Shown: piece by piece, positions 37,929 through 42,205 of the stretch
Layout of the letters: every line of letters begins with the position of its first letter
Numbering within the stretch: position 1 is the first letter of the stretch
Virus record (IMG/VR): IMGVR_UViG_3300030095_002502
Coordinates: 1 to 58,559 of that record
Source of the DNA: a virus
Taxonomy: Duplodnaviria; Caudoviricetes
DNA: 58,559 nucleotides
Reading direction: 5' to 3' (one strand)
The notes under the pieces: generated by a model
What the model was told of the DNA's origin: nothing
Database searches by the model: none
What the model saw: the letters and a program-made list of their open reading frames with translations, nothing else
Made by a program: the position numbers and the translations under genes

Positions 37929-38100
37929 GTTTTGACTCCGGCTTTACCGTTTCCGGTATTTAAGAGAAGGTTTCAAAGTATTTAAAGGTGCCGGTCGTTT
38001 TTGGGTGTTAAACATATAAACTCGTGCTTAGTTGTTTCTACCCCATTTTCCGCTCATCATCCGCAGAAATCGGGGGAGCTTTAATATAGAACCCCCTTCC

Positions 38101-38410
38101 TATATATTATACTATATTAAGAATATTGCTCTATTATGCAATAATAAAGCATTGCTCTATTACTAAATAAAATAGATTAATAGAGCCAATTGCTGAATAG
38201 AGCATATAATATTAAGCTAACATATGCTTACACTACTTTTTTCTTGTTCACATATAACAAAAAAAAGCTCTATATCGAACTTAAACTATCGGTTTTAGTT
38301 TATAGGCTCTATTAGTCATGACCAATTACTCACTTATAGGGTGCGACGTAGAGCAAATTTTCTCTTCTGCGCCTACCGACAGACATAGGGCCCGATTGAG
38401 CTCTATTTCT
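38101..38410. repeat. AT-rich cluster of eight GCTCTA/TAGAGC hexamers (candidate origin)
   Basis: Copies at 38128, 38154, 38181(rc), 38198(rc), 38267, 38306, 38349(rc), 38400 in a divergent intergenic region. Confidence 0.6.
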
Positions 38411-38493
38411 CACGTGCGGATAACGACGGACGGCTTTATCGAGCTTGGTTTTAATATAGTATTTATACCTTTCGGTTTATATCGCTCGTCATG

Positions 38494-38596
38494 ATATCAC
38501 TGCGGGTTTTTCTAAAAAGTGCAAGCGGAACTTATATGCCCCTATATATACGTCCCCGAGCTTTATATACTCTTTTGACCCCAACCTTTATATACT
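38494..38596 (+). promoter_or_regulatory. multi-TATA promoter cassette, copy A
   Basis: GCGG..TATA..CCTATATA..CGAGCTTTATATAC..AACCTTTATATAC aligns with the reverse complement of copies B-D. Confidence 0.7.
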
Positions 38597-38631
38597 TCGA
38601 AACCATGTGTAATATAGAGGAAAGTGATAAG

Positions 38632-38982
38632 ATGCCATCAACAACAGAAACGCAGAAAAGCACAGCTATGGATTATTTATCGGCCCCAAGAAATGAAGGC
38701 CTTGTAAAAAATCTGATGACTTTAATTGGATTTACAGCTCCAGAAGGCGGTCGTCTTCCGGCAGGTGTAAAGTATGACACAATTATAGCATTAAATGATG
38801 TCGTAGGTAACAATGCAGAAATGCAAAGTATGCTCGCTACTCGTGTATTTGAATTACAAGCTCAAAGACGAACGGCTAACCCAAAAGTTAGTGCAACTCC
38901 TGAGTCTGTAATAAATGCAGTCAAAGCTGGAAAAATATCTTTAGATGAGTTAAAAGCTCAGATAAAATTATTAGAAGGCTAA
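38632..38982 (+). CDS. hypothetical protein, sole + strand gene of the early region
   Basis: MPSTTETQK..., 116 aa; GAGG upstream and cassette A promoter. Confidence 0.7.
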   Translation: MPSTTETQKSTAMDYLSAPRNEGLVKNLMTLIGFTAPEGGRLPAGVKYDTIIALNDVVGNNAEMQSMLATRVFELQAQRRTANPKVSATPESVINAVKAGKISLDELKAQIKLLEG

Positions 38983-39000
38983 AAGCGTTCAATGCTCAAA

Positions 39001-39211
39001 GGGTGACGAGAGAATAAGAGGTTCACCCATTTATGTTTAAAGAGATAGCTTCTCTTTATCGTTAGTGGCCGAATAAGTCCTACCCAACGGACTAAGGCAC
39101 ACGAACCTGCTCCAACGGACAAGTGTCTGAGGAGGTGGTAAGTGGTAAGCAATTACAAATTAACTACTTAGGTAGTTGGGAGTTGCTTTGGGGGTTAACC
39201 AAGAATCCCCC
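39001..39211 (+). ncRNA. candidate structured RNA (hairpin chain)
   Basis: At least five consecutive hairpins with no ORF. Confidence 0.45.
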
Positions 39212-39239
39212 CTAACACCTTTTATGATTATATGCATAT

Positions 39240-39520
39240 ATAGGTCGTGAGTTATCAGTCGCCACTTAAATTAAAGAACTCGAGTTATCACTCTTCGAAA
39301 CTAAAAGAGTATCCGTCACTCCATTGGAATCGATTGTTTAGGTATATATTTAAAGTTAAACTAACGCCTATTCTCAGACCTCCGAATGCGTAAACGATGT
39401 ATCCAATTATTCCCTCAACAGTAGACTAACCCTTCTTTTACAATTTATCCGATGGCTAACTAATAACGTCTTTCTCACGTGAAGTGTAAAACTTTTGTTT
39501 GGAAGCACGACCGACTTATG
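39240..39520 (-). ncRNA. candidate ~280 nt ncRNA with its own promoter
   Basis: TATA at 39544-39551 on - with no start codon or ORF behind it; terminal stem GGTCGTG/CACGACC. Confidence 0.55.
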
Positions 39521-39635
39521 ATTAAGCCTAGTGGAGAGCAACCTATATAAAGGTATAAGACTCTCAACTATTTTTTTCGCTCGTAGTGAATCACTGTGGT
39601 GGGGGCCACTAGCCCCCGAGGTAAAACAGTTCAGC

Positions 39636-39872
39636 TTATTTTATTTGAACTCCATAGGATTTAATATCAGAGATATAAGTGTCTCCGTATTCGAATTCTC
39701 CGTAAGTCATATCTGACTTAACCGCACAATACCATCTGGCATATGGATTCTTAGCCTCGTTCTCAGGAGCTTGGTATTTCTTTAATACTCTCCACTCAAA
39801 CCCGGAAGGGCCACTCCAAACCTCGTATGGATTGTCTAACTTTCTCGTTTTACCGCATTCGTTTTTAGTCAT
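39636..39872 (-). CDS. hypothetical phage early protein
   Basis: ORF track; TATA about 22 bp upstream; GGGGGC/GCCCCC hairpin downstream. Confidence 0.75.
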   Translation of the reverse strand: MTKNECGKTRKLDNPYEVWSGPSGFEWRVLKKYQAPENEAKNPYARWYCAVKSDMTYGEFEYGDTYISDIKSYGVQIK

Positions 39873-40015
39873 AATATACCAATAGCAGGGTTATATTTAA
39901 AGGTTCGCACCCTGATATCACCCCGGCCGCGGGGCCTACTCGTATTTTTTAAGTAGGCGTTTAAGGAGAGCCTCGTTTATATAGGCGTCCCCTAGCTTAT
40001 GCCACATATCAGTTT

Positions 40016-40821: not shown

Positions 40822-40950
40822 TTTTACCTCTATCCTAACTCTAACAAGAGAGTATATAAAGGTTTGTCTCTAAAAGGTATATAAAGGCCGAGGAGCCTTA
40901 TATAGGGTAATATAGAACCCGAACGCGTTTTTTGAAAAAACCGCACTGAT
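40822..40950 (-). promoter_or_regulatory. multi-TATA promoter cassette, copy B
   Basis: 40822-40921 matches 41618-41717 at 94 of 100 positions by hand alignment; includes the SD. Confidence 0.8.
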
Positions 40951-41617: not shown

Positions 41618-41730
41618 TTTTACCTCTATCCTAACTCTAACGACAGAGTATATAAAGCTTTGTCCCTAAAAGGTATATAAAGGTCGAGGACCCTTATATA
41701 GGGTAATATAGAACCCGCTCGTGTTTTTTA
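41618..41730 (-). promoter_or_regulatory. multi-TATA promoter cassette, copy C
   Basis: Near-identical direct repeat of copy B. Confidence 0.8.
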
Positions 41731-41807
41731 GGCCCCCGGGGGTAGTTAGAGGGCCCGGGGGGTATCGTGGTGATATCACCCTGAATGTTAAGTATAAGGT
41801 TTTGGGG

Positions 41808-42038
41808 TCGTAGGTCGTGAGAACCCACTCGAGCTAACCACGGGCTTCCAACCGCGTCAGTCATGAGCTGTCGAATCAATAGCAACCTAGACACGCGTGT
41901 CTCTTGCTACTATTGTCCTTTTGCCCTTCGCCATTCTTGTCAAGCAACCCCATTATTTTTATTCGGGTATTAGCCGAACCTAAATAAGGTGTATCCCTTC
42001 CTCAAGGGAAATCTTACTTCATCCATTTAGACCTACGA
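41808..42038 (-). ncRNA. candidate structured RNA behind a 27-codon ORF
   Basis: Closing stem TCGTAGGTC/GACCTACGA enclosing four hairpins; G-U pairs favour the - strand. Confidence 0.5.
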
Positions 42039-42102: not shown

Positions 42103-42205
42103 TTTTACCTCTATTTTAACTGTAGCGACAGAGTATATAAGGGTTTGGTCCATTTTAGTATATAAGGCACGAGGGAGTATATATACTGCGTTATAGTTTC
42201 CGCTC
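42103..42205 (-). promoter_or_regulatory. multi-TATA promoter cassette, copy D (diverged)
   Basis: TTTTACCTCTAT..CGACAGAGTATATAA..GTATATAAGG..CGAGG..TATATA..CCGCTC. Confidence 0.7.

Follow-up and report, generated by a model that had tools for sequence, protein, structure and literature searches.

Small RNAs that end at intrinsic terminators, including those derived from 3' untranslated regions (UTRs), exist in bacteria. EutX and Rli55, of Enterococcus and Listeria, are non-coding RNAs (ncRNAs) controlled by a B12 riboswitch, and antisense RNAs of the lambda OOP type are short RNAs made from a promoter that points toward the 3' end of a transcript of the other strand. IMES motifs are abundant structured RNAs of marine metatranscriptomes. 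The manA motif, known from marine metagenomes and cyanophages, is an orphan riboswitch candidate (Weinberg et al. 2010, PMC2864571), and the passages that deal with it in that paper and in PMC9964418 place it in the 5' UTRs of protein genes.

The locus compared here with these systems lies in an IMG/VR record of 58,559 nt (58.6 kb, estimated to be 83% complete), all of which was analysed and is hereafter called the window. It encodes siphovirus-type genes for a tape measure, large terminase, portal, major head protein, ribonucleotide reductase and DNA polymerase; the large terminase (TerL) is at most ~25% identical to that of any cultured phage, and the source is an uncultured marine siphovirus-like lineage. 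From ~14.6 to 42.4 kb the genes are on the − strand, except for a small + strand island with two tandem upstream motifs (38559 and 38584), a 112-aa gene and a manA RNA. The region of interest, 39240-39556, is bounded by this manA RNA and the 3' end of a 78-aa gene that converges on it. The surrounding features are:

38559-38594, + strand: phage upstream motif, present twice in tandem with a spacing of 25 bp and preceding the 112-aa gene
38644-38982, + strand: 112-aa gene, the constant 5' neighbour of the element described below
39038-39221, + strand: manA RNA motif (RF01745), 57.5 bits against a cut-off of 55.2, minimum free energy (MFE) z score −3.78
39604-39620, no strand assigned: GC-rich hairpin between the terminal hairpin T2 (below) and the stop codon of the 78-aa gene, read from the sequence
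39636-39872, − strand: 78-aa gene converging on the element

For this region the preliminary description had proposed a ~280-nt viral ncRNA that starts at a promoter on the − strand, folds into five helices and converges on a chain of hairpins on the + strand. The chain is the manA RNA. A non-coding structured element of about the proposed size and bounds is indeed present; the strand and the inner fold given for it did not stand up. Judged by the comparisons below, the region is a divergent version of a ~330-nt element that is conserved, structured and non-coding, and we favour, with a little more than even confidence, the reading that it is the window's + strand copy of this element in a cassette with the 112-aa gene. 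As such it appears to be a structured RNA encoded by a phage and closed off by a putative terminator of its own, a kind of RNA already known. Its parts in the window are:

39226-39242, + strand: A/T-rich box abutting the 5' arm of the closing helix; the box of the relatives here is A/T-rich too, and TATAAT-like in several
39243-39249, + strand: 5' arm of the closing helix, 7 bp with 39506-39512
39336-39373, + strand: stem-loop B, the best-conserved sequence block, located by profile match
39470-39505, + strand: hairpin C, with an inner stem (39477-39485/39491-39498) and a possible outer stem (39470-39474/39501-39505) that was read by eye
39506-39512, + strand: 3' arm of the closing helix, with an equivalent helix in 11 of 11 members
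39513-39528, + strand: linker, the diverged counterpart of the relatives' CCTTATAATGAC block, containing the hairpin with which the transcript had been proposed to open
39529-39577, + strand: terminal hairpin T2 (39529-39570) followed by a run of seven T (T7, 39571-39577), resembling an intrinsic terminator
39544-39554, − strand: ACCTTTATATA promoter motif at the tip of T2, an exact 11/11 match

Twelve contigs, the window included, carry the whole element, always directly 3' of the 112-aa gene and on the same strand. An nhmmer profile recovered it in full and in this orientation behind the gene in L002-L008, and a motif scan of IMG/VR added L083, L087, L088 and L090, each with the full element behind a 112-aa homologue. 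Partial copies follow the gene in L010 and L011; in L009/L019, and as a second match in L010/L011, the T2-like part alone is found upstream of it. The 112-aa gene and manA are present, and the element absent, in L016, L020, L023 and L024. The window order, identical in L090, is the 112-aa gene (ending at 38982), manA and the element (39243-39577). L004 has, in order, the 112-aa gene, T1 (a GC hairpin), an ORF-free stretch of ~320 nt, a long hairpin whose tip carries the motif, another GC hairpin in the position equivalent to 39604-39620 and a converging 78-aa-type gene, which is the window order with T1 replacing manA. An equivalent ORF-free stretch follows the 112-aa gene of L015 in a different neighbourhood. 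The far-side neighbour varies, from the converging 78-aa-type gene (window and L004) to co-directional non-coding DNA and genes (L015), and through these rearrangements the element remains co-oriented with the 112-aa gene whatever lies beyond it. Homologues of that gene were 56-65% identical in 10 loci, and four further loci carry homologues; its product had no Pfam or PHROG match and no usable ESM Atlas match, and with a pLDDT of 57.5 its AlphaFold model is unusable. Like the 3' UTR-derived small RNAs, the element directly follows a protein gene in the same orientation, has a hairpin and U run at its end and appears in RNA contigs; unlike them, it is longer and more structured (~330 nt, with a long-range closing helix) and is separated from the ORF by T1 or manA.

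This homology emerged only through synteny and profiles. Neither 38980-39640 nor manA had a blastn match among 50,697 phage records. With the two flanking proteins as queries 48 related loci were obtained, and because blastn and tblastx of the region against these loci matched only manA and the 11-20 nt motif, the region looked unique at first. Exact-word scans of IMG/VR with three window probes returned 0, 1 and 0 matches; a word match in L050 lies inside an unrelated gene, extends to just 23 nt and was taken as chance. A metagenome scan yielded 25 stretches, two of which (L056 and L065) are the same phage and, being identical to the window over 39222-39640, hold no covariation information for the region. 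An exact 22-nt match between window positions 39390-39411 and a Prochlorococcus single-cell genome (L076:1501-1522) is probably also due to chance: it is on the opposite strand within a glycosyltransferase-like ORF, and that genome is otherwise without similarity.

The window is a distant member of the family. A profile of seven relatives, with the window left out, had its top match in the window at 39315-39395 on the + strand (E = 0.0031). A covariance model of the 3' part from six relatives (R1) missed the window copy under default filters, its best match being elsewhere (54489, E = 0.047); with filters off over 1 kb the best local match was 39471-39574 on the + strand (12.4 bits), with an E value of 0.0034 that applies to this small 1-kb search and an alignment of the window that needed a large deletion. 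Weak matches of this kind indicate a diverged member. Stem-loop B is recognizable in the window from the match of the windowless profile together with its inner helix, which is kept, the outer three to four pairs being lost (A·C cells). T2 retains its outer stems and T run and is without the inner GGGACGCCC hairpin typical of the family. In hairpin C the pair G39481·T39495 is kept, and two pairs are changed on both sides relative to the other members. Outside the full element, a T2-like module with the inner GGGACGCCC hairpin occurs alone upstream of the 112-aa gene (L019:3444-3581 and L010:2729-2815), and the outer stems of T2-like hairpins differ in sequence among L019, L004 and L015 with complementarity retained.

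The stem proposed to close the RNA (39243-39249/39506-39512) is the part of the earlier fold that is borne out by the relatives. An equivalent helix of 6-9 bp occurs in 11 of 11 members, with eight distinct arm sequences, and encloses 249-263 nt (7 bp and 256 nt in the window); in the relatives its 3' arm lies just before the CCTTATAATGAC block. On a single sequence such a stem proves nothing, since by our own arithmetic a perfect 7-bp complement is expected ~2-3 times by chance within 317 nt. Read on the − strand alignment, the closing stem has 81% of cells paired and three pairs with compensatory change. The other four proposed helices can likewise pair in the window sequence but are not conserved: the non-closing helices are 44%, 40.5% and 51% paired on the − strand alignment, one lies inside a window-only insertion, and the hairpin said to open the transcript is 51% paired in the relatives.

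Covariation was assessed on alignment A4 (8 sequences, 43 pairs), drawn from a set of 8-11 related sequences with some near-duplicates, using the RNAalifold structure without T1. In A4 93.8% of cells are paired, compared with 76.0% in shuffles, and 27 pairs show compensatory change, compared with 14.2 ± 2.1; none of the 500 shuffles reached either value. In A4 the closing helix of the window is not correctly aligned. Partners slid by 1-3 columns were 34-51% paired, a control that is biased because the structure was derived by RNAalifold from the same alignment. The helix of stem-loop B (columns 185-192/218-225) is 91.7% paired, the inner stem of hairpin C 100%, and the hairpins homologous to T2 have covarying stems. 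On an 11-sequence MAFFT alignment, poor alignment of the 5' half limited the RNAalifold prediction to hairpin C and T2. Folding energies showed no excess over shuffles for 39240-39556 (MFE z of −0.33 on the − strand and +0.17 on the + strand) or for 39250-39460 (+0.80 and +0.43); the manA control gave −3.78.

The lack of excess stability would suit a functionless spacer left by rearrangement of the 112-aa cassette, with the motif an orphan that once served a gene. In five relatives (L015, L017, L020, L023 and L024) the motif after the 78-aa gene does precede a gene of 78-86 aa, which is absent from the window without a remnant in the region, and the cassette is inverted relative to the L015 order. 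We nevertheless consider a spacer highly improbable: neither compensatory change in 27 of 43 pairs nor a closing helix kept in 11 of 11 members, with eight sequences and a constant enclosed length, is expected of one. As separate observations in relatives, a conserved ORF-free stretch of ~400 nt with a mean column identity of 70% follows the 78-aa gene in four contigs (L016:3232-3715, L020:3235-3660, L023:3226-3615 and L024:3226-3660), a profile of which (A2) had no match in the window, and the Rfam family DUF805b RNA (RF02914) matched L022:2937-2971 at 46.5 bits, just upstream of the 78-aa homologue.

Coding does not account for the region either, a point on which the earlier reading of a region with no ORF holds. 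The longest ORFs are of 48 aa (GTG start, + strand) and 44 aa (TTG start, − strand), neither with a Pfam match; no Shine-Dalgarno-like sequence precedes any ATG-started ORF of at least 8 codons in the region; and tblastx against the 48 related loci gave a best E value of 0.43. Among 11 members of the element the longest ORFs vary in place, strand and length. The ORF, Pfam and tblastx results together offer no conserved peptide that would explain the region. A conserved leader peptide was considered in the form of a short ORF of 10-18 codons that runs from a conserved ATG in the linker to the T2 tip in the members examined (39518-39550 on the + strand in the window, and the equivalent place in relatives); it has no Shine-Dalgarno sequence and by manual reading is frame-shifted in L002 and L003, which makes a conserved peptide unlikely. 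A tRNA or tmRNA in the region was ruled out by scan. At E values up to 10, Rfam 15 matched only manA in the window and no family over 39240-39556, manA itself (RF01745) included, and the element of the related loci was unmatched at gathering cut-offs. A word search of the literature, where a sequence search is not possible, found no account of the element. With no Rfam 15 match, the element is likely a new RNA family. A mobile element with terminal repeats was also considered, and a 9-nt direct repeat and the inverted repeats are within chance expectation.

Several features point to the strand on which the element is read, and we hold the + strand to be quite probable. Hairpin C has a G·U pair on this strand in 11 of 11 members and a U·G pair in 5 of 11, which on the − strand would be C·A or A·C and thus favour the + strand; on the reverse strand RNAalifold did not predict hairpin C. 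The consensus energy is −31.96 kcal/mol with 38 pairs on the + strand and −27.32 kcal/mol with 34 pairs on the − strand, and the − strand fold has a U·G pair of its own at one position in 7 of 8 rows, so the G·U counts are not one-sided. A run of T7-T9 follows T2 on the + strand in 7 of 11 members. T2 in the window (−10.8 to −11.5 kcal/mol, with a gap of 0 before the T7 run) looks like an intrinsic, Rho-independent terminator, a putative assignment made from its sequence. A simple terminator scan did not list T2, probably because its loop is longer than the limit of the scan. On the − strand no terminator-like site was found near 39250.

The ACCTTTATATA motif, on which the proposed − strand promoter was based, is real: allowing up to one mismatch, the expected number of copies in the window is 3.72 and the observed number is 24, which none of 100 shuffles reached. 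The majority are upstream of ORFs and face them, and some form arrays with 25-bp spacing. The exact copy at 39544-39554 is at the tip of T2, where the site is palindromic; the position weight matrix (PWM) scores it 8.6 on the − strand and its + strand partner at 39541 8.1. The score of 8.6 ranks 26th, under the 22 sites that score above 10. A promoter of this type would face a gene, ~22-45 nt before its start codon, and no − strand ORF follows this copy. Among 10 relatives aligned, the T2-tip motif faces + in seven (L004, L083, L088, L090, L002, L003 and L087) and is degenerate in three (L005, L007 and L008); it faces − in the window only.

These data bear on the original proposal, in which the − strand promoter at 39544-39554 yields, as the main product, an ncRNA of ~280 nt running toward manA, with a start taken here as ~39537. 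The core motif is exact, strongly enriched and unlikely to be there by chance, a TATATAGG variant lies ~25 nt upstream of ATGs in relatives, and on the − strand a run of A and a CGAGCG box stand upstream, as in the promoter array at 41.7 kb. On that strand G also exceeds C (62 versus 47), one U·G pair is specific to its fold, and the RNA-library contig of X19 (see below) ends at 39515, 22 nt from the predicted start. The motif orientation in the relatives runs against it, as do the synteny, four of five proposed helices that are unconserved, a hairpin C and a T run after T2 that function on the + strand only, the lack of a − strand terminator-like site near 39250 and a PWM score that the + reading nearly equals. 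Although the motif is sound, a − strand main product is therefore unsupported and in our judgement unlikely, and the strand and promoter first assigned are most likely wrong. The proposal resembles the lambda OOP arrangement in having a − strand promoter that faces the end of a + strand unit; it differs in that the − motif belongs to this phage only, no − strand terminator was found and the conserved structure is on the + strand.

The + strand element may be accompanied by a window-specific antisense transcript from the − motif. Such a combination, with the element as in the relatives and a flipped T2-tip motif firing antisense in this phage only, would accommodate all of the + strand evidence together with the exact − motif and its upstream context, as well as a palindromic site that scores about equally on each strand. 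Against this, the relatives show no conserved antisense feature, the contigs carry no strand information and transcription would have to start inside a stable hairpin; we see it as a doubtful addition to the + strand element. Since the promoter motif of this lineage can occupy a terminator-hairpin loop, the motif alone is insufficient to assign a strand, which is a caution for promoter spotting from motif presence. A + strand promoter at 39234-39244 was also considered, and the PWM reported neither this site nor any other + strand site directly before the element at its print threshold of 4; the A/T-rich box at 39226-39242 may act as a promoter.

Elsewhere in the window, the − strand has arrays of three motifs with 25-bp spacing and a palindromic distal copy at 40853-40915, 41649-41704 and 42134-42190; ahead of the arrays stand a CGAGCGG-type box, an A run and a GC hairpin, a layout shared with relatives. 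Another stretch, 37990-38560, has ~570 nt without an ORF between diverging upstream motifs (37979 on the − strand and 38559 on the + strand) and includes a T8 run as well as the G+C minimum of the neighbourhood (0.245 at 38100-38299).

Contigs of three marine RNA libraries from three studies cover 39255-39515. They span 39255-39444 (0 differences), 39260-39456 (0 differences) and 39385-39515 (2 differences), the last of which (from X19) continues leftward into sequence unlike the window; as assembled contigs they carry neither strand nor ends, and DNA can occur in RNA libraries. The boundaries of two contigs, at 39255 and 39260, fall within 5 nt and show no loose end, which hints weakly at an RNA terminus. 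Neither arm of the closing helix is included in the two zero-difference contigs; the helix may thus function only in a longer precursor, or play no part in the RNA that they represent. Of the 24 runs listed, 20 contain the stretch or part of it, 14 of these (13 studies) with at least half of its words; in five RNA runs the share is small. X20 contributes only a portion of the 112-aa gene, and two X15 pieces derive from relatives. Parts of 38600-39900, flanking genes included, that are uncovered in X15, X16, X19 and X20 are not evidence, and the contig depth (52 in X16) is unfit for ranking genes. These contigs are the first evidence of the presence of the element in ocean RNA libraries. Like the IMES motifs, the element is marine, structured and present in metatranscriptome assemblies, and unlike them its region matches no Rfam 15 family at E values up to 10.

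The helices could alternatively act in DNA, for instance in single-stranded form during replication or packaging, or as inverted repeats bound by protein, and the RNA contigs would then be incidental. Watson-Crick covariation suits folded DNA equally, the T2 tip is a palindrome of a DNA motif and the RNA fold has no excess stability. The conserved G·U pairs and the T run after T2 are RNA features, however, RNA-library contigs come from three studies and the neighbours are RNA elements (manA), so that we think a role in DNA improbable.

If the region is the + strand element, transcription from the promoters of the 112-aa gene would pass a gate after the gene, which is T1 or, in the window, L090 and L083, manA; alternatively, it would start at the A/T box before the 5' arm. 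The element would be copied and transcription would stop at T2, giving a stable RNA whose ends are held by the closing helix and which would persist in folded form. The predicted RNA would comprise the closing helix enclosing stem-loop B and hairpin C, the linker and T2 with its T7 run, with the A/T box at its upstream edge.

manA lies between the 112-aa gene and the element in the window, in L090 (72.6 bits) and in L083 (48 bits, below the Rfam cut-off). The remaining nine contigs with the whole element have no manA, and in most relatives a plain terminator hairpin, T1, takes its position. Since the next feature downstream of manA is a non-coding element, manA may gate an ncRNA, and the tandem in three contigs makes read-through into the ncRNA a candidate output for manA; relatives with T1 provide a natural comparison. 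This would resemble EutX/Rli55 in that a candidate aptamer is followed on the same strand by an ncRNA and no ORF (window, L090 and L083), and would differ in that most members of the element family have a plain hairpin in place of manA. The element shares with manA its marine phage setting and is likewise a conserved multi-helix RNA, with a different architecture. A fuller version, in which manA replaced T1 as a ligand-controlled gate on the ~330-nt phage RNA and the flipped motif adds an antisense brake, is speculative and rather unlikely as a whole; were it true, manA would here control an RNA instead of a protein. Natural variants of the manA copy exist in the two records of the same phage: L065 combines a change of G39190 to A with one of C39211 to T, two positions that pair with each other in the final hairpin of manA, and the changes in L056 are only at the manA loop positions 39202 and 39205.

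A further conserved candidate for a structured RNA, unmatched in Rfam at E values up to 10, is found in the window at 41779-41985 on the − strand (six-relative profile E = 1.9e-38; MFE z = −2.11), with compensatory change in 26 of 44 predicted pairs in a 7-sequence alignment. It lies directly downstream of manA in L002, L003, L004, L014, L015 and L017, and in L004 its counterpart is followed by a tRNA. Downstream of manA in L016, L020, L023 and L024, ~650 ORF-free nt precede the next gene. This stretch contains repeated GAGAAA/CTCAG-type words and iteron-like AGCTCTACTAAG-type repeats, and could be an origin or regulatory region.
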